DNA of 64,000 bases from Yuukianura sp. NJ FZ-2021 (lineage: Eukaryota). Under the pieces are notes generated by a model, which ran no database searches, was not told the origin of the DNA, and saw only the letters and a list, made by a program, of their open reading frames with translations. This document shows positions 36,444 through 63,216 of the stretch, in pieces (position 1 is the stretch's first letter; each line of letters opens with the position of its first letter). Made by a program: the position numbers and the translations under genes. The stretch lies in assembly GCA_046563655.1 (NCBI GenBank), contig CM102290.1:10540001-10604000 (forward strand). The letters are read 5' to 3'.

Positions 36444-39400
36444 ATGGGGGACACCTTTAAAATTGGTGATCTTGTCTGGTAAGTAACTGTACACTTAAGC
36501 TAATTAGAGTAACTGTACTGAATATCATCTGTTCTTATGCTATTTCCTATAAGATTCCCTGTATAAAACATACCGTGCCTCTTTCCCACCTTCTAAGTTT
36601 AGGCGGCATAAATAGGACTCGTGTTTATGATGCGTCGCGCCGCCATTTTCAAGATTGTACTTCCGATTCTTCAAACGATTTCTCGAAACGGAAACTTCGG
36701 ATCAAAGAGTAATCAACGAAGATGTATGGACGTTCTTATCTACGTTAAGAAGAAATTAACGAATTTAATGATTCATCTATTTCTATTAAGCTCCTTCATT
36801 CTGTTCACCACGTCCACCACTACCCAAAATGGAAGGATAGTATGGCTGACAATGGACATTATTGTTGTTGCTAACGTTATTTAATGTTTTGGATGAATGT
36901 ATTGTCTATACGATGTTAGGATTAAGACGTAGTGAACATAGGGCAATGCCCAAAACTAAAGGTTATGTAGAATATATAGAGAGCATTGAAGTAAACTTGA
37001 TTTGTCATATTTCAGGGCTAGGATGAAGGGATTCCCACCATGGCCTGGCAAGGTGAGTAAACACTGAGTTGACAATTTTACGTTTGTGCCATTGTATTTT
37101 ACTCTATGAAGTTCTAATAGTGACTCATAACATTTTAGGTTTCAAATCCACCAAATCATCTGAAGAAGCCGAAAGGGGCCAAGCCGGTTCAATGTATTTT
37201 CTTCTTCGGTTCAAACAATTTCGCATGGATCGAAGACGCAAATGTCAAAACCTACGAGGAGAATAAGAGTGTATGCATAAAGGCGGCCAAGTCGATTGCG
37301 TTCAAGGAGGCATGTGCAGCAATTGAAGATTATAAAGCAAAACTACTCGCTGGGGAAGTTATAGACGATCTAGCTCTTGTTCCACCAGAAATGGACAATG
37401 ACACTGAAATGGAGATCAGTCCAGACTCTAACAAGGACAGCGAGAGTCCTGAGAAGGAAGTTGTCGAAAAGAAGGTTAGAAAATGAGTGTTCTGAGCAAT
37501 GACTGTGTATTATTACTGTGTAATACGGCTCCGTACTTCATCGGATTTTATAGTTAACATTGTCATTTGTATTGTAGCGCCGAGGAAGGAAGCCAGGCAA
37601 GAAATCGTCCGTAGAAGAGAACGGAGAGGGTGGCAAGGAAATAAAGAAAGACGATGCTGCAGCGCCAATTCGAAAACGTAAGCACAACGGAACTAAGGTG
37701 TCAGCGGATGTAAAGCCACCAGCAGCTTCTCCCTCAGCTGCTACATCTGCATCCACGTCCAATCACGTTCAGCGCAAATCTGCAGTGGCGAATTTCTTGG
37801 ATCGCCCTATCACCATCAACAAAACCGTAAGTTACTTTAACTTTCAACGTTAGTTTAGCTATCATGTATCAAGTTGCACGATTTTACACAAGTACCAAGG
37901 CGTTATACTGCAAATGGTATTTCTCTTTACAAGTTTTACAACTGTGATGGGTACGGTAGCTAACTCGTTTGTTTCTTTACCGCTATGTTATATTGATCAT
38001 CTTATTGTAATTGCCTTACCGCGTACTGCGACGTTTATTAGTCGGAATCAGCTGAGAATAGCATTAGTAAGTACTGATTGGCATAGTTGCGTTCCGACTT
38101 GGGAGCATGACGTTGAAGACTTGTAGCATGTAATGTTTATGTTTTATATGAAGGAATGTCAAACATATTTAGTCTACATGCCCGTAATGCTAACGAAAGA
38201 AATATTTACGGGGACTTAATTTCCGATTTATGATGCTATGATATCTTGCCGGGCGCTTTGATTCGGGGTTTGAATTTAATTTTGGTTCTACTTGTTTCAG
38301 ACCGATGCTCCACTCAATATATCTCATGTGAGTCAAACGCTGAAGGATAAAAAGATCACGCCTTCGCCTCTTCGCTTTGGCTTTCTCGGACTGGGAACTA
38401 TGGGATCTGGAATCGTAAAAAATCTTTTGAATTCCGGCCACAAAGTTACTGTTTGGAATCGGACCACTGACAAGGTAAGAGAAACCGTTTTCTTCAATTC
38501 ATTTGTACTTACGGTTGCGCGGTAACGAATTTCATCTTTTCATCCTCTATCCTCCACAACATCTCGTCACCAGCATTATTCCAATACAGGTTTTGGATAG
38601 GACGTTTAGTAAGGTGCGTTAATGCAAAACAATTTCATTTGACTTGACATCACGAAGAATATCTTTCCGCTTGTGCAGAATTCCTATTCTGTTTTCAAAC
38701 TTTGTAGCTTTTCGGTTTCATGGAGTTTTGGTTTGCATTTGAAAATCTAGGAGTCAACCCCAACTTCCTTTTTGGTGACACATTATGATTTATTCACGTT
38801 TATTTGCTTTGATTGTTTATAATAAGAGCAACTGGGGTGAAAATTATGCTCGATGACGCTCAAAAGTGTAAAGGGAAGTTGAAATGAATAACGAATATTG
38901 TACTTTTGACTAATCTCGATGCTCGATCAAACAAAAGTTCGTTTTCAACGTTAAAGTTTCTACTAAACATGTAGTTGTAAGAATAATTACTAAAAACATG
39001 CAAGAAAAAACTCTTGAAACTATTAACTACAATAGAATTGAAGGCGGGTTTACACAATAGGGTGTATATTAGCCGCGAATTCGGTTTCTTTTTCGGTATC
39101 TTCTGGATCAATTGTTGTCGGTTTCTCACAACTGTCTCCATGACCTTCACTATCTTCAGTCGAAATTGTGTCTTTTGAGGATGGGATGATAAGGGTGACA
39201 TGGTCTGGTGTTATATTTGGATTGGAGTTATGATTAGGGCTGGGGTCAAGGTCAACGAAGGGAACAAGCTCCTGTGCTGTCTCCATATCGACGCACAGGT
39301 CACCTCCATCTAACTCTTCACGCATTTCGAGTAATTCGTCCAAGTAGATTGACTCTGTTCGTCCACAGGCTCCTACCCCTCGACATGCGTCGAAATTTAG

Positions 39401-42400
39401 CGTCTTGGGAAGATTTTCTAGGATTTTGTTAACTGTCTGAGCTTGCCACTTGTACGTTTCACGGAGTCTCAGCATCTGATGACTACTGAATTTCCCCACG
39501 CGGTTGCGCTGAAAAACATAGTTTTCACGAACTTTACAAAGTTGCTGTGTCGAGTAGGTAGAGACACGACGAATCTAGAAAAAAAAATTATATTCAGTGT
39601 TAGGAAGTTTGAAGTTTAGAGTTTTGATTGGAATTTTATTATTTTTTTGTTTTCCTAACCTGGTCGTGGTACTGGTCTCGAACCGTTTGTAGTTGCTGGG
39701 CTCCGTAATCTCGGATATCTGACAAGTTTTTTGTTTGGATAGTGTAGCTCTCTCGAATGCGTTCCACTTGGTACATGCAGTTGTCCTTGACTCGTTTTAC
39801 CTATTCGGAATACAAAATTGAATTTCAAAAAGAAAGTATTCAAGTATAACTGGTTATATTTTTTGTCTGCGTTGATGAAGTACAGAAGTTTAAAAAATTC
39901 ACTACGTACCTGCTGGTTGTAGTTATCACGAAGCCACTCTAATTGAGAGTTTTTATGCTGCTCCATGTTCTCAAAGAATCTTCTAATTCGACGCGTTTTG
40001 TAGGGGGCGGTGATGTTGGGACAATCAATTCCGTTCCTGCGTATGAAAAAAGTGATTAGTAATTCGACAAGGTTGTGTTTTAGTACTATGAGTTTTTGCT
40101 TACTTATTAAGTACAAATCGTATGAGCTGAATCGATAGAACTGTCATGAGAAATGCAAGGCTCGTGAGCCATCCGATGACAATACTTGCGAGTTTTACAT
40201 CCAGAAAAATGGAGGTATCGACTCCGAGGTGGATAAAGTGGGTGATGTTCAAGTCTGGATACTCTGCTACGCATGTGTAGAGTCCAAATGCATCGGTTGT
40301 TAGATTAGAAATGTGGAGATCTCCGTTACTAAGAACGCGGTGATAGGAACTGTAACTGTCGGATAACACTTCGTCAGAACCACTGTGATGTGAGTTACTG
40401 TGGAGAGTAGGGCCATTCCGTGGAAGTGACCAGTAAACCCTGGGATACCCCTTTTTCTGTGGGTGACACTTGAGAGTCTTACTGCTCCCTTGGACTCCGT
40501 AGTACTTGCGCGGAGTTCTCGCAGTTATGTCTCGGTTGGTACAGTTGAACTTATTGAGGTAGCTGGCAATAGGTTCTCGGTCACTGCATAGAACTTCTGC
40601 ACTCAGATCAGTATCGTTGGATAACGCCGACGTTTGGAACCAATGGATCACCCAGCGGTCAAAACATGAGCATGACCAGCGATTACCAGTCAAGTATACC
40701 CGTTTTAAGTGGCGCAGATGAGCTAACGACTCTGGAATCACCAGCATTTGGTTGTCTCGCAAGTCCAAAGTCTCTACCCGCTCCAAAGTATCGAGCAACT
40801 TATCCATTTCAGTAAGAGATCGAGTGGCAGTCGTGGAGTCTATGAAACTGTCATGGGCCCAGGTTTGGCGCATGAGCAAAACTCTCAGTTCGACGTTATC
40901 CTCAAAGTATGGTTCGAAGATCTGTAGAAGTTGATTTCGGCTGAGGTCGAGGGAGTGTAGGGAGATCAACGGCGTAAAAACTTCTGCATCGGCATACTTG
41001 ATTCTGTTGTGACTCACGTTGAGCTTTTTGAGTGCCGTGAGTCCAACGAATACTTGTTCCTGTAAGTGCTCCAGATGATTTTGTGAGAGGTCGAGGAACG
41101 TCAGTTTTGGAAGTTCGCGAAATAAGCCCCATGGAAGAGTAGAGATAGTGTTACAGGATAGGTCAAGACTCTGGAGAGTTAATCCTAGACGAGACACGTC
41201 GATTACGTCTAGGCTGGAACTGGACAAGGAAGAGTTGAGCACGGAGAGGTGGATGACATGGGGTAGGGCTGAAACGAGTAGATCTGTCAGCTGATTTGAA
41301 GAACTATTGCAAATACTAAGGCTGTCGAGGTAGAGACGACTGAAGTGGGACGACGACATAACGTCACCATAGGGGTCGGGAATGGCCGCCCTCGGGTGAA
41401 GATCGACATTGCAAAGTCGGAGTTTCCGAAGAGTCGTTGCCGAAGTTCGGAACGTGTCCCAGGTGACGAAGGCGCCAAGGTCTATACTGACATGGTGTAA
41501 GTTGAGTTCATGCAGTTTGGAATTGTTAAAGTTGGTCAGTAGTGTTAGGGATTTTAAAGTATGGTGGTCGAGTGTGACGTGGTTAAGACCAAGGCGGGAA
41601 ACTCCGTTGGTCAAAGGAATTTGACGTTGCTGAGGTGCTGGAGTTGTTGTGGGTTTCCGACAGCTTATTTTCAAATGCTGCTGTGGGGAGTCGTAGTGAC
41701 AGGAACATAAATTAGGACAGTCGTAATAGTCGATGGTTAGGTTGACAGTTTGGATAGGGAATCCAGTAGGGTGACTAGAGACATTGTATTGAGATGTTTC
41801 TGCTGAAGTGGGTTCGGATGTGCCAGAAATGATTTCAGTAACAGAATTGTTGGGTGCTATTAGTAGTAGCAGAGTGATCTTGACCAGGTTTTGATGGCGA
41901 CTTGCCCAATAGTGGAGTCGTGACCTTGGTGACGATGGAATCGCCATCCGACGACGGTCTAGTTAGAATTGGATTGAAGCTGGATACTACTAGTAACTAG
42001 TCGAACTCCCAAGGTCCTTTGTGATTGATTTGATGCATCCCAGGATACAACTCGAGACAATCTGTGAATTTCAATTAGGTTGAAATTAGCACAATTTTGT
42101 ACTATTGGGTTATTGGGTACTACTGGTTTATGGTGTGGTAGTGAAGTTACGTTAGGCAGTAAGTTATGTTGTTAAAGTTATGGTAATCAATTCCATTGGG
42201 TTTTGACGAAGGTGATGGTTTAGGGTCTAAGCGGTACCGAAATCTAGTTTGCCACTTTTAGTTCTCGTATTCAAAAGTGCAAAAAGTTGATGGTATCGGG
42301 CTCACTTATGTAGATGTAACTCTGACGCTGAATGTGAACTTGTGAGTTGTTTTTGGCTTTTGGCAGTGGATGATGATTTGAAAAACGACAAGTTTTTGCT

Positions 42401-45351
42401 TTTTGGGAAAATGTTTTTAAAAAAAAAACTAGTTCTAACTTATTTGCGATCGGTGCAATCTTTTCTGCAATACAGAGATAGCTTTTAGAGAATGATTGAG
42501 CGTTTGAGTGGATTTAACTTCTGGAGGTTTGATTTTGATATTTGGTTTTAGAAATGTAGCTAAACTTGTCTTAATCTGTGTCTGTACTGGCGTTGATAAG
42601 TGACAAGTCGGATGTACATCAATTCCAATTCCGTTTTTTTGTAGAATGCAAACACACTTGAAACTATCAACTGCACTAAATTTTTAGCTTGTGGTTCTTC
42701 TTGGTCTCAATGGAATTTGGACACGGTTCAATTTTACGACACAGAGCACCATGTTTGCCCTTCGTGATGGAAACGAAATTGGGCTCTCTTTTGACTTGCT
42801 TTTTAAGATTGAAGCGTGTTGGTGTCCCTGAAGAGTGACAATGACGAGTTAAGTATGGCAGTCTGGTGGTTAGCCTATGTTGTTCACTCTTGGTATTCGT
42901 TTAGGGTTAAGTGAAAATGGAAAATTAATTTAGGTTATGATAATGGAAAGTAAAGTTATCAAGATCACAGGACCGAACTGACCTTACCGAGACCTTTAAC
43001 GGAGCTATTTTTTTTATAAATTAGGAACCGAATTCACGGATTGAAATTAAGTTAGGCTAAGCTAAACTGACTCGGAACTTAAGCTAAGCCGAATTGGAGT
43101 TACTATTATCTGGAACGGATCTTATGACTTCAAGACCGTGTGAATTTAGCAATTACTGTTCGACGATGATGGTGATTTTCGTCACAGATTGCTTAATCTA
43201 TCCTGTTATAAACCGCTAATGAATATGGATGGTCTATTCTTTGCATTCCTTGCTGTATCACCTCTTTTGCAAAAGAGAAAGGGAGCAAGATGTGCGATGT
43301 GACGAATTGCGCAATTCCGAGAATTAATTTATTTAACAACAAAGAGTGTCACTGTGTGTCTAAATTTACAAACGGAGTGTCTAAACACGAGTTATGTAAT
43401 TTAATGGGTGTAATTCATTCACAGCCAGTAGCAAGCGTTGCGCTAAACATAATCGAACGCTGATAGGGCTATCTTAGTTTAGTTTGTGGTTAGTTAAGGT
43501 TAGTACCAACGCCACGCAGTTTATGTTTTTGTGTGTGGTTTTTGTAAGACGTACTAAGAGGCGTATTCAAGTATTAGAGAAATTTTGAATTGAATTCGAG
43601 TAATAGTGAAGTACCTTACCAGTTGAGGTCATGCAAAGGTTACGGAGATGAACCAAAGTGGAAAGAGTCTAGATAATGGAGAGGTCAACAGGAAATTTCA
43701 TGTCGATGTCAACACTTTTACTGCTGCAAGCGGAAAAAATTCCTGAGAGTTATGTTGTAAACTCTGCGGCAGAATGTTATGGTAGTTGAACGTTGAACCA
43801 TGAGAGGTGAAGGCTAATGGACCAATTCTTCCTGTTTTCTGGTAAAAACTGTTTGGACTGCGGTCTGGTCGAAGGAAGAGGTTGAACGGGTCTAGTCGTA
43901 GCCTTTATGTGCAGAAGGTGTTCAACACAATGGTCGATATCTCCTACCGAGAGGTTTTTGACAGGGAGAGTTGTCTGATCTCTCTGCGTTTGCACCACTT
44001 CCCACTCGAAAAGTTTTTTGGAAAAGCCTAAGCTATGCTTAAGCTAAGCTAGATATAATCCTGACTTACTAGACTGGGCCCCTTTATTGAATGGGAAGCA
44101 ACTCGGTTTTCTATTTGCTCCATGTTGCCGCCATGCGAGAGGCCTTGCAATTTGATTTCTCGTGCGCGAAACGTCGAGGACTTTTGGCGGAGGACCCAAG
44201 GTCAAGGAAATGACATTACATGGTGGTTGATGAAGGAAATGGAATGGGTTTGAACAGAAAGTTCTTAAAAGAGCATCATTTGGCGTCAAAGCGAGCTCAG
44301 ACTGGGACAAAAGAGAAAAGATGTTACTAATGAGCGTTTGATTTGGTTTATTTCAGTGCAAGAACTTCATAAGCGCTGGAGCGGAACATGGAATCACTCC
44401 TGGAGATGTCATCCAGACGTCAGACATTACGTTTTCGTGCGTGTCGGACCCTGTTGCAGCCAAAGAAGTATGTTGGCTAGCAGTTCTAGTTTGTATTTTG
44501 TCGGTTTTTAAATTGAAAATGACAAAGGCATGTTGCTTTTTCAGATGGTGTTTGGAAATTGTGGAGTACTTCAAGAAATTACGGCTGCGAAGGGCTACGT
44601 AGAAATGACGGGGACCGATGCAGAGACCTCTATGGATGTGGCAGAAGCTATTGGGACGAAGGGCGGTCGATACTTGGAAGCACAAATCCAAGGAAGCAAG
44701 CTGGAGGCGGAAAATGGAACGCTGGTCATCCTGGCTGCTGGTGACCGTGACCTTTACGAAGATTGTCAGTCCGCCTTCCAGGCCATGGGCAAACACTCCT
44801 TCTACTTGGGTAAGTTTTCAGTTCTAGTAAAACTATGTCTAGACTTTAAAAAAATAATAGTTATCTAATTTCTGTTTGTTTGTATAGGTGATGTGGGAAA
44901 TGCATCCAAAATGAACATGGTGATGCAGTTGCTACAAGGCGTTGGGATGGCTACATTGGCAGAAGGAATGGCTCTGGCAGATCGAGCTGGATTGCAACAA
45001 CGTGACGTTATGGAGATCCTAGCTCTGACGAGCATGGCCTGTCCACTGTTTTTGGAAAAAGGAAATGGTACTTGTTTTTCAAAACAAAAAAGTGAACTTT
45101 GAATGTTGGCGGTTATTTTTGGAACTTTAACAACATTGTGATTTTTTGTAGGTATCATCGAAGGAACGTTTCCAACCCATCAACCGTTGCAGCATATGCA
45201 GAAGGACTTAAATTTGGCTCTTGGGATGGGACATCTTCTAGAACAGCCACTTCCTCTAGCTGCTTCAGCGAATGAAATATTTAAACATGCAAAACGCCTT
45301 GGCTATGGAGAGCATGATATGGCGGCAGTATACATTCGAGCTAGATTTTAG
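36444..45351 (+). CDS. GLYR1: Cytokine-like nuclear factor N-PAC / GLYR1 / NP60 (PWWP + AT-hook + beta-hydroxyacid dehydrogenase-like domain); 9 exons, 528 aa
   Basis: Exons 36444-36478, 37016-37052, 37139-37474, 37578-37826, 38301-38474, 44357-44467, 44545-44809, 44888-45067 and 45152-45351 (1587 nt, GT-AG, in frame). PWWP domain [36 protein letters not shown]-hook-like RRGRKP; Rossmann motif [31 protein letters not shown]-terminus [19 protein letters not shown]. Confidence 0.96.
39050..41947 (-). CDS. LRR + Ig single-pass membrane protein (IGLR-2 / Drosophila CG16974-like), nested antisense in GLYR1 intron 5; 4 exons, 878 aa
   Basis: Exons 40104-41947, 39910-40036, 39660-39800 and 39050-39574 (2637 nt, in frame). 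Hydrophobic N-terminal segment, LRRNT CPNLCSC, multiple LxxLDLSxN repeats, [13 protein letters not shown], Ig domain ([22 protein letters not shown]), TM segment [22 protein letters not shown], and a cytoplasmic region containing [41 protein letters not shown]. The orthology call is from recall of the family, not a search. Confidence 0.92.

Positions 45352-58146: not shown

Positions 58147-63216
<5,070 letters not shown>

Follow-up and report, generated by a model that had tools for sequence, protein, structure and literature searches.

The receptor gene and its host

The DNA analysed here (the window, a stretch of 64,000 nucleotides) carries on its minus strand a four-exon gene for a single-pass LRR-Ig receptor of 878 residues. 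The protein consists of a signal-like start, a block of leucine-rich repeats (LRRs), one immunoglobulin (Ig) domain, a single transmembrane segment (TM; a hydrophobic stretch at about residues 586-611, judged by eye) and a long cytoplasmic tail of 267 residues. In exon 1, Pfam recognises LRR_8 (E=1.3e-24) and Ig_3 (E=9.5e-7), together with V-set and ig, and the closest named relatives are Orchesella proteins with 40-41% identity. The features of the locus are as follows.

39050..41947, minus strand: whole receptor coding region (gene model, canonical splice sites, Pfam, relatives)
40104..41947, minus strand: exon 1, with signal-like start, LRRs, one Ig and TM at about 40115-40192, by eye (gene model, Pfam)
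40037..40103, minus strand: intron 1, 67 bases, phase 2, GTAAGC..CAG (gene model)
39910..40036, minus strand: exon 2, with basic juxtamembrane stretch (39946-40005), all of repeat 1 and the first residue (Q) of repeat 2
39801..39909, minus strand: intron 2, 109 bases, phase 0, GTACGT..TAG, after the leading Q of repeat 2
39660..39800, minus strand: exon 3, with repeats 2-5 (including the 14-mer repeat 4) and the first residue (Q) of repeat 6
39575..39659, minus strand: intron 3, 85 bases, phase 0, GTTAGG..TAG, after the leading Q of repeat 6
39050..39574, minus strand: exon 4, with repeats 6-10, a helix end at L-P, a conserved Cys motif at about 39335-39397, an acidic low-complexity end and the stop
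39413..39945, minus strand: repeat region, 113 residues when spliced, in ten 11-residue repeats that pair into five 22-mers and hold one insert of 3 residues
37139..38522, plus strand: upstream part of the host gene, given as ORF bounds rather than exact exons, PWWP at 37139-37483 and the start of NAD_binding_2 at 38280-38522
44512..45348, plus strand: downstream part of the host gene, again as ORF bounds, NAD_binding_2 profile positions 71-161 at 44512-44865 and NAD_binding_11 at 44869-45099 and 45142-45348

Since exons of a PWWP/dehydrogenase gene lie on the plus strand on both sides, the receptor gene is nested in an intron of this host. Its upstream part matches PWWP at E=5e-8 and NAD_binding_2, over profile positions 2-39, at E=9e-11, in a Pfam scan that covered 112 of the 187 listed plus-strand ORFs; the other 75 lie before 36850, within 37164-39057 (except those at 37578 and 38280), within 41884-41997 and after 58914.

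Beyond the membrane, the protein loses its resemblance to Pfam families: exon 3 matches only EzrA, at chance level (13 bits against a cut-off of 39.6), and exon 4 matches no family at E<=1. The basic juxtamembrane stretch encoded by exon 2 has a net charge of +3 to +4 and a HeliQuest-type D score of 1.41-1.62. In the relatives P0001, P0004 and P0005, ORFs holding exon 1 alone stop at the matching site just past the TM.

A tail built of 22-residue units

The spliced tail contains, at residues 646-758 (39945-39413), ten 11-residue repeats, one of them stretched to 14 residues, just as an earlier note on this sequence had described. The lower bound given there, 39410, lies one codon too far, the repeat region ending at 39413. 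All ten repeats of the window begin with the Q that had been assigned to position 1. While the 11-residue repeat is thus real, it is not the true unit, which is a 22-mer of two unlike 11-mers: an A half of the form Q-h-x-x-h-R-[DE]-N-Y-x-x and a B half of the form Q-x-x-R-h-[RK]-x-[YF]-S-x-x. Autocorrelation of the 113-residue tail, computed with BLOSUM scores against 500 shuffles, accordingly scores higher at lag 22 (z=9.0) than at lag 11 (z=5.9); the signal at lags 14, 25 and 36 (z=3.3-5.3) is due to the 3-residue insert, which turns repeat 4 into two heptads. None of 2000 shuffles attained the hydrophobicity power that the tail shows at 3.6 and 3.67 residues per turn. The repeat region is free of proline and carries a net charge of +8 (20 K+R versus 12 D+E). 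Tandem Repeats Finder returned 0 rows for tandem repeats in the DNA itself, which indicates that the repeat is old.

Both tail introns are in phase 0 and come, as previously noted, immediately behind the Q that opens a repeat, in repeats 2 and 6. The splicing of the tail is supported by comparison with springtail proteins, to which the predicted spliced product aligns ungapped across both tail junctions, with identities of 16/24 and 18/24 at junction 1, 15/24 and 18/24 at junction 2, and 83/113 and 93/113 over the repeat region; if the 109-base intron were retained, the frame would shift. Intron 2 is not general in the family, as nine insect-like single-exon ORFs cross its position unbroken. 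The position of intron 3, in turn, is common to many species: 27 of 66 short family matches break exactly there, while 20 start 0-4 residues past it, 14 cross it, four start at a later natural Met and one is unclear.

A conserved module on LRR-Ig receptors

Judged by its sequence, the tail is a conserved and previously undescribed module on LRR-Ig receptors. A profile search with it yielded 513 cluster representatives, and it is present in insects, crustaceans, mites, molluscs, brachiopods and nemerteans. An LRR+Ig ectodomain was attached to it in all of ten divergent members, and the module terminates in a conserved cap motif. Among the named matches listed in two word-limited searches, 0 of 35 and 0 of 24 were deuterostome proteins. 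Most relatives have a juxtamembrane CCCC cluster, where the window has its basic start.

Conservation within the module is strict. The tail of the window is identical to that of a crab protein at 71 of 113 positions and to that of an orthopteran protein at 75 of 113, without gaps in either case. Seventeen pancrustacean tails align gap-free over 182 columns, 39 of which are invariant; tail length is fixed in Pancrustacea, and repeat number varies outside. Within the nine regular repeats of these 17 sequences, Q occupies position 1 in 140 of 153 cells. On a helical wheel, the conserved positions form the contiguous arc 8-1-5-9-2-6, with mean entropies of 0.00-0.80 bits, compared to 1.22-1.27 bits for the free positions 10, 3, 11 and 4. 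In every one of the nine regular repeats, position 9 is invariant; Tyr holds this position in 85 cells and never gives way to Phe, which argues for selection on more than bulk hydrophobicity. Along the tail, the residues found at position 9 are Y,C,Y,-,Y,S,Y,S,Y,L, large and small ones alternating at a period of 22 residues; this suggests knobs that might fit a defined partner surface.

The module has no Pfam family. A profile search against the PDB returned no solved relative for the tail, only coiled-coil and ApoA-I matches at chance level (E=0.075-1.2). Searched by structure, a protein atlas offered, apart from two clusters of arthropod LRR-Ig proteins, generic proteins with long helices, such as DivIVA, the MCP signal domain and SH3BP5; searched by features, it gave no usable match. 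In the literature, we found no hendecad tail on LRR-Ig receptors; the term '11-residue repeat' in a cytoplasmic context leads to synuclein. Being so widespread in animals, the module deserves a family definition, independently of the link to IGLR-2 discussed below.

A predicted single helix with one straight stripe

AlphaFold2 predicts the tail of the Orchesella orthologue, from a 13-sequence alignment, as a single helix of about 135 residues (6-140), with block-mean pLDDT values of 88-97 over residues 11-130 and 82 over 131-140; the means of the five models range from 72.7 to 81.4. As the best model contains one helix, a helical hairpin or bundle is ruled out for this orthologue. For exon 4 of the window, AlphaFold2 gives, at lower confidence, two helices (residues 9-26 and 31-54; mean pLDDT 61) with a break at 27-30. 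At this break, the window has a Gly that is absent in the relatives.

The hydrophobic moment over the whole repeat region peaks at 99.0 degrees per residue, with 0.295 against 0.122+-0.038 for shuffled sequences. This angle equals 3.64 residues per turn, or 31 turns in 113 residues, the value that results from ten repeats with one insert. At 98.18 degrees the moment is still 0.246, while at the heptad angle of 102.86 degrees it is only 0.077, ruling out a heptad coiled coil. The single hydrophobic face in 11/3 projection, whose absence would have spoken against the reading of the earlier note, is therefore present: positions 5-9-2 form a stripe that keeps a straight course down the helix, edged by Q at position 1 and Arg at position 6. 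Together with the AlphaFold2 helix, this supports the helical hendecad reading of the tail; the lipid-sensing reading advanced alongside it is the less probable one. When hydrophobicity is taken from the Kyte-Doolittle scale, in which Tyr is polar, the family profile has its strongest harmonic at 11/4 (period 2.77) rather than 11/3; the stripe reading therefore depends on the inclusion of position 9 and on the helix modelled by AlphaFold2.

The stripe is narrow. The apolar face takes up 3 of 11 positions, one of them being Y/S/C, and has a mean 18-residue moment of 0.32 and a mean hydrophobicity of 0.16. Arg lies at the edge of the stripe, and acidic residues lie centrally on the polar face.

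A proposed docking rod and its alternatives

We propose, giving it an even chance of being right, that the region is a cytoplasmic helix-helix docking rod of a protostome-wide LRR-Ig receptor family, the one annotated after fly CG16974 and worm IGLR-2, to which the receptor would belong. Following the basic juxtamembrane stretch, about 135 residues would form one unbroken alpha-helix of five 22-residue units, whose stripe would serve as a docking face for another helix. The tail would thereby act as an untwisted hendecad coiled-coil rod, pairing either with another copy of itself or with some partner in the cytoplasm, and would keep the conserved Cys-containing cap at a set distance and orientation from the membrane. 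In this proposal the stripe would bind protein rather than lipid, and any oligomeric state of the rod is likewise conjectural. A prediction for a complex of two tail copies, run without controls, scored 0.01 (mark 0.32) and is counted neither way on pairing. Some features argue against the rod: the stripe is only weakly hydrophobic, with Y/S/C at its centre and Arg at what would be the hendecad 'e' position, and a lone helix modelled with high pLDDT would be expected equally from a single stable helix or from one adsorbed to a membrane. The 11/4 harmonic on the Kyte-Doolittle scale and the less confident, broken fold of the window's exon 4 count against it as well.

The latter possibility is that the tail is an amphipathic helix lying flat on the inner leaflet, in the manner of the 11-mers of apolipoproteins, perilipins or synucleins, whose binding depends on acyl-chain packing and which, as a sensor of lipid packing or membrane fluidity, signals to an AdipoR/PAQR partner, a role that has been proposed for worm IGLR-2 with PAQR-2. 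The 11/22 periodicity and a stripe kept straight at 99 degrees per residue would suit a flat surface. The charge layout, with Arg/Lys along the stripe edge, acidic residues at the polar centre and a surplus of eight positive charges over 113 residues, would also favour this reading, and so would the basic juxtamembrane start of the window and the CCCC cluster found there in most relatives. Sub-threshold matches point in the same direction: the tail of the relative P0215 resembles the Pfam family Apolipoprotein A1/A4/E (PF01442; E=6e-5, 23.3 bits), the same family is annotated on P0306 in precomputed data, and ApoA-I surfaced at E=1.2 in the PDB profile search. These matches, however, remain far under the 90 bits that Pfam requires, the apolar face seems rather narrow, with a modest moment and low hydrophobicity, and where the D score of the repeat region exceeds 1.34, it is driven by net charge and not by hydrophobic moment. 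Proline punctuation is missing too, and lipid-binding repeats typically show only loose conservation of pattern, while here both the overall length and the residues themselves, even those at the polar positions 1, 7 and 8, are constant throughout Pancrustacea. This strict conservation of residues and length leads us to favour the docking rod over the lipid-packing sensor, which we consider unlikely, even though worm IGLR-2 and PAQR-2 are described, in passages of PMC4833288, as acting in membrane-fluidity homeostasis. In a more specific form, the tail might be a ruler of about 20 nm parallel to the membrane, whose Tyr/Gln stripe reads inner-leaflet packing and, upon rigidification, engages and opens an AdipoR/PAQR hydrolase. 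We regard this as rather improbable; if true, it would supply the missing conserved fluidity-sensing mechanism of IGLR-2-class co-receptors across protostomes, including cold-exposed soil animals such as springtails.

The tail could also be a single stable alpha-helix without any dedicated binding face, acting as a stiff lever or spacer that sets a distance of about 20 nm between membrane and Cys cap. The confident, unbroken helix that AlphaFold2 builds without a partner, the fixed length in Pancrustacea and, as read from the consensus, possible i to i+3 salt bridges between positions 3-6 and 4-7 are consistent with such a spacer. Classic single alpha-helices are rich in E/K/R, though, and with about 28% charged residues (32/113) the tail stays well under them. 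Nor would a spacer need invariant Tyr, Gln and Asn, or conservation concentrated on one face instead of around the helix, and outside Pancrustacea its repeat number varies. We consider this explanation quite unlikely. A different role is suggested by the Y-x-x-Q motif, a STAT-SH2-type site: phosphorylation of Tyr might unwind or expose a docking array that recruits SH2 proteins. Seven of the eight Tyr in the window's tail stand in this motif (0 of 5000 shuffled sequences reached 7; their mean was 1.11 and their maximum 5), the other 16 pancrustacean tails have 5-6 sites each, and four sites are common to all 17; acidic residues two positions ahead of Tyr and the absence of Tyr-to-Phe exchange at position 9 would fit as well. 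The motif, however, follows automatically from Q1 and Y9, the repeat positions with the strongest conservation, which are neighbours on one face (i, i+3) and can bond mutually, and SH2 domains bind extended peptides, whereas the tail is predicted to be a firm helix. Such an array is compatible with a coiled coil and could coexist with the docking rod, but we consider it very unlikely.

A putative link to IGLR-2

Kinship of the receptor with C. elegans IGLR-2 is putative and rests on database names and on published fly-worm orthology. Proteins of Palaemon, Chionoecetes and Homarus that carry the tail are named 'immunoglobulin domain and leucine-rich repeat-containing protein 2' in NCBI/UniRef, and CG16974 and ZC262.3a are given as one-to-one orthologues in a part of PMC2235866. 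Nematode proteins were absent among the tail matches listed in word-limited searches. In passages of PMC7428288 and PMC8088037, worm IGLR-2 appears as the obligate partner of the AdipoR homologue PAQR-2, with which it senses membrane rigidity; the role of its cytoplasmic domain is described there as open, and a mammalian functional counterpart as not known. A functional partnership of this kind with an AdipoR/PAQR protein is known, from portions of PMC4833288 and PMC7428288, only for the worm pair. A truncation of IGLR-2, et38, is described in PMC4833288. As far as the text portions of the CG16974 and IGLR-2 papers go, supplements and figures aside, they mention neither repeats nor a coiled coil in the tail, which for IGLR-2 they describe only as a cytoplasmic domain.

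If the family comprises true kin of IGLR-2, the tail would offer a defined, highly conserved and easily mutated module, with its five 22-mers, the invariant stripe of Tyr and Gln and the Cys cap. The role of the cytoplasmic domain would then become testable as pairing, lipid reading or phosphotyrosine docking.

Comparison with known helix systems

In its overall layout of LRRs, one Ig domain and a single TM, the receptor resembles the vertebrate AMIGO, LINGO and LRRN/NLRR proteins. Several relatives have been given these names automatically.

As for the tail, it shares with apolipoproteins A-I, A-IV and E (PF01442) a helical 22-residue unit made of two 11-mers and a richness in Q, R, E and L. 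Apolipoprotein 22-mers are, however, punctuated by proline, while the window's tail has no proline between units, a narrow apolar face and strict residue conservation, and its helix is anchored, in the cytoplasm, to a receptor that spans the membrane. Its exons also have no match to PF01442 at E<=1, the best relative being the one with 23.3 against 90 bits. With synucleins and perilipins, the tail has in common the 11-residue period, a helix geometry of the 3.67 type and a face that stays in phase over a long distance. In these proteins the repeats may diverge considerably in sequence and are disordered when no membrane is bound; the tail, in contrast, is confidently predicted by AlphaFold2 as a helix and has near-invariant positions 1, 8 and 9. 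Unlike typical hendecad (11/3) coiled coils, finally, the tail has a polar core of Tyr, Ser and Cys and an Arg at 'e', but it shares with them the 3-4-4 core spacing of positions 2, 5 and 9 and the lack of fit to the heptad angle.

Results

The receptor is encoded by a predicted four-exon gene on the minus strand, with canonical ends at all three introns (GTAAGC..CAG, GTACGT..TAG and GTTAGG..TAG).

Exons of the receptor gene (gene model)
40104-41947, minus strand, exon 1
39910-40036, minus strand, exon 2
39660-39800, minus strand, exon 3
39050-39574, minus strand, exon 4

The product comprises 878 residues. Pfam places leucine-rich repeats (LRR_8, E=1.3e-24) and a single Ig domain (Ig_3, E=9.5e-7) in exon 1, which also encodes a hydrophobic stretch, called by eye, that would span the membrane (TM); the remaining 267 residues form the cytoplasmic part. 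Among named proteins, the ectodomain is nearest to those of Orchesella (40-41% identity, compared with 63% for an unnamed exon-1-only ORF); the nearest match of the tail is from Allacma fusca, with 93 of 113 residues identical. These matches make a springtail the probable source of the sequence. The predicted spliced product aligns with annotated springtail proteins without gaps through both tail junctions.

The receptor gene is nested within a plus-strand host gene, for which a Pfam scan of 112 of the 187 plus-strand ORFs returned the following parts.

Host-gene parts (Pfam scan of ORFs)
37139-37483, plus strand, PWWP exon, upstream of the receptor
38280-38522, plus strand, first part of NAD_binding_2, upstream of the receptor
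44512-45348, plus strand, rest of NAD_binding_2 and NAD_binding_11, downstream of the receptor

The host gene (37139-38522 and 44512-45348, plus strand) joins a PWWP domain to a 6-phosphogluconate-dehydrogenase-like NAD-binding fold, a GLYR1/NDF-like architecture; none of the 112 ORFs scanned (of 187) supplied an exon for NAD_binding_2 profile positions 40-70. Further downstream lies an apparent Pax-family transcription factor gene, with the PAX domain in two half-encoding plus-strand ORFs (58147-58455 and 58486-58914; Pfam PAX, E=2.6e-31 and 2.5e-31).

The repeat region of the tail, which covers receptor residues 646-758 (39945 down to 39413 in the window), is periodic far above chance: the z-score of its autocorrelation is 5.9 at lag 11 and 9.0 at lag 22, and none of 2000 shuffles attained its hydrophobic power at 3.6-3.67 residues per turn. 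The parse proposed in the earlier note, ten 11-residue repeats of which the fourth has 14 residues, was borne out; Q leads all ten, and both phase-0 tail introns of the gene model fall directly after such a Q. On the 11/3 wheel, where the repeat positions follow each other in the order 1-5-9-2-6-10-3-7-11-4-8, the sole apolar stripe consists of positions 5, 9 and 2, flanked on one side by Q (position 1) and on the other by R/K (position 6); the acidic position 7 lies opposite. The vector sum over all 113 residues is largest at 99.0 degrees per residue (0.295, against 0.122±0.038 for shuffles) and falls to 0.077 at the heptad angle. This peak corresponds to 31 turns in 113 residues, and the 3-residue insert thus adds one turn and holds the stripe in phase. 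As a caveat, the Kyte-Doolittle scale, on which Tyr counts as polar, gives the family profile its strongest harmonic at 11/4 (period 2.77). Since the lag-22 signal exceeds that at lag 11, the tail is really built from 22-mers with two dissimilar halves: an A half with Tyr at position 9, the third stripe residue, and a B half in which position 9 is Ser and position 8 is aromatic or aliphatic. No tandem repeat was found at the DNA level in this region, which argues that the repeat is ancient.

AlphaFold2 modelled the tail of the Orchesella orthologue as one helix over residues 6-140, with block-mean pLDDT of 88-97 for residues 11-130 and 82 for 131-140, and as disordered from the Cys-motif region onward. 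For the last exon of the window, aligned with 24 same-exon ORFs, confidence was lower (mean pLDDT 61), and the helix came in two pieces, 9-26 and 31-54, split at a Gly in repeat 8 (39491-39493) that is absent from relatives; the residue is Arg or Cys in 15 of the remaining 16 pancrustacean tails and Lys in the last (P0147), and the orthologue's model is unbroken at this site.

With the Orchesella tail as query, at least 35 proteins among 101 candidates were matched, all of them pancrustacean LRR-Ig receptors, from decapods, amphipods, a stomatopod, a beetle, a wasp, an orthopteran, mayflies, a planthopper and Allacma. Seventeen tails, including the window's, align ungapped across 182 columns, 39 of them invariant. 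When 1.84 billion cluster representatives were scored with a profile built from 13 tails, 513 matched at E<=1e-3 (318 at E<=1e-10, 148 at E<=1e-30), of which the analysis covered the best 150; a local profile was matched by all 183 family proteins collected, 105 of them full-length with a complete tail. LRR and Ig domains were present in ten of ten divergent members, and one divergent tail retrieved at least 24 proteins among 265 candidates, with a nemertean, a brachiopod, a limpet, a clam and a mite named. Outside Pancrustacea the number of 11-mers varies in whole units, while the consensus of the repeats is kept, as are the basic start and the terminal cap, in which a Cys-containing motif follows a helix end of the K-L-Q-Q-Q-H type. 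Scans of the window's tail exons and of divergent members found no Pfam family for the tail, and a PDB profile search found no solved relative by sequence (best E=0.075-1.2). The tail is a previously undescribed helical module, built of 22-mers and present protostome-wide in a family of LRR-Ig receptors; the original observation is real, and stronger than could be known when it was made.

Individual relatives show further features. In a Chionoecetes opilio protein (P0129, around residues 670-705), one 11-residue unit occurs three times running where relatives have one, either an exact in-register 22-residue expansion or an assembly artefact; in another relative (P0135), 4 residues are inserted at this site. 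In most relatives from crustaceans and insects (P0123, P0126, P0139, P0146, P0152, P0136, P0145 and others), the TM is directly followed by a run of 2-4 Cys, a putative palmitoylation site, and then by Ser-Pro and basic residues; in the window (39946-40036) and the other springtails, one Cys plus a basic stretch takes the place of this run. Many C-termini (P0123, P0126, P0133, P0139, P0145, P0146, P0150 and others) read E-T-[SA]-L or similar, presumably class I PDZ-ligand-like; that of the window (39053-39070) differs, and Orchesella proteins finish in Q-D-V.

Intron positions were tallied in 66 short family hits, mostly single-exon ORFs off genomic contigs. Nine stop right after 'D-Q', which closes repeat 5 and opens repeat 6, and go on with unrelated residues from a V, as a GT donor would read; two read through an insert at this junction. 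Sixteen open with unrelated residues before the next exon's first residue, immediately preceded in 14 of them by Q, as a CAG acceptor would read, and 20 more start 0-4 residues past the junction. Another 14, which may be transcript-derived or intron-less, continue through it, four start at a later natural Met and one is ambiguous. Judged by this tally of ORF ends rather than annotated genes, intron 39575-39659 probably occupies an old, widely common position. Intron 39801-39909 is not general, nine insect-like upstream ORFs being uninterrupted there. With one intron shared and one local, and a chance of roughly 1-in-11 that two introns land on the same one of 11 positions, the claim that they lie in repeat register is suggestive only. 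Exon-1-only ORFs of relatives (P0001, P0004, P0005) end at the same point as exon 1 of the window (40104), just past the TM, suggesting that the phase-2 intron 40037-40103 may also be common to springtail-like genomes.

Discussion

On the wheel, the conserved positions 8-1-5-9-2-6 adjoin one another in a single arc, with mean entropies of 0.00-0.80 bits, compared with 1.22-1.27 bits at the free positions 10, 3, 11 and 4. Position 9 does not vary within any of the nine regular repeats (Y,C,Y,Y,S,Y,S,Y,L), and its Tyr fills 85 cells, with Phe in none. Because the length is fixed, the identities are fixed even where polar, the stripe is narrow, and large and small residues alternate at its centre, we see about an even chance that the stripe serves as a specific helix-helix docking face. 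The earlier note had proposed a lipid-sensing helix or a hendecad coiled coil; the helical tail was upheld by the orthologue's model and the straight 11/3 stripe, and lipid sensing now ranks below docking. A lipid sensor would fit the straight stripe, the Arg at its edge, the positive net charge, the basic juxtamembrane start, where most relatives have a CCCC cluster, and sub-threshold Apolipoprotein matches, but moment and hydrophobicity are modest; we regard it as unlikely and favour the docking rod.

That the tail is simply a lone stiff helix appears less probable again. Least probable, in our estimate, is an array of candidate Y-x-x-Q phosphotyrosine sites: the window's tail has seven, a number reached in none of 5000 shuffles, but the motif arises from the repeat register itself, Y9 and the next Q1 being helical neighbours.

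The cytoplasmic domain of C. elegans IGLR-2 (ZC262.3) has been proposed to perhaps act on the regulatory domain of PAQR-2 (PMC7428288), and a premature stop at Q593 of 773 acts like other loss-of-function alleles (PMC4833288); IGLR-2 is stated to have no known mammalian functional homologue (PMC8088037). CG16974 is listed as the one-to-one orthologue of ZC262.3a (PMC2235866), is termed 'less studied' (PMC11188811) and is maybe expressed in embryonic muscle precursors (bioRxiv 10.1101/124644). The passages cited here and the other literature searched contained no description of repeats in a tail of the IGLR-2/CG16974 type. A connection of the tail module to IGLR-2 is plausible, and the key question will be whether IGLR-2 and CG16974 themselves possess it.
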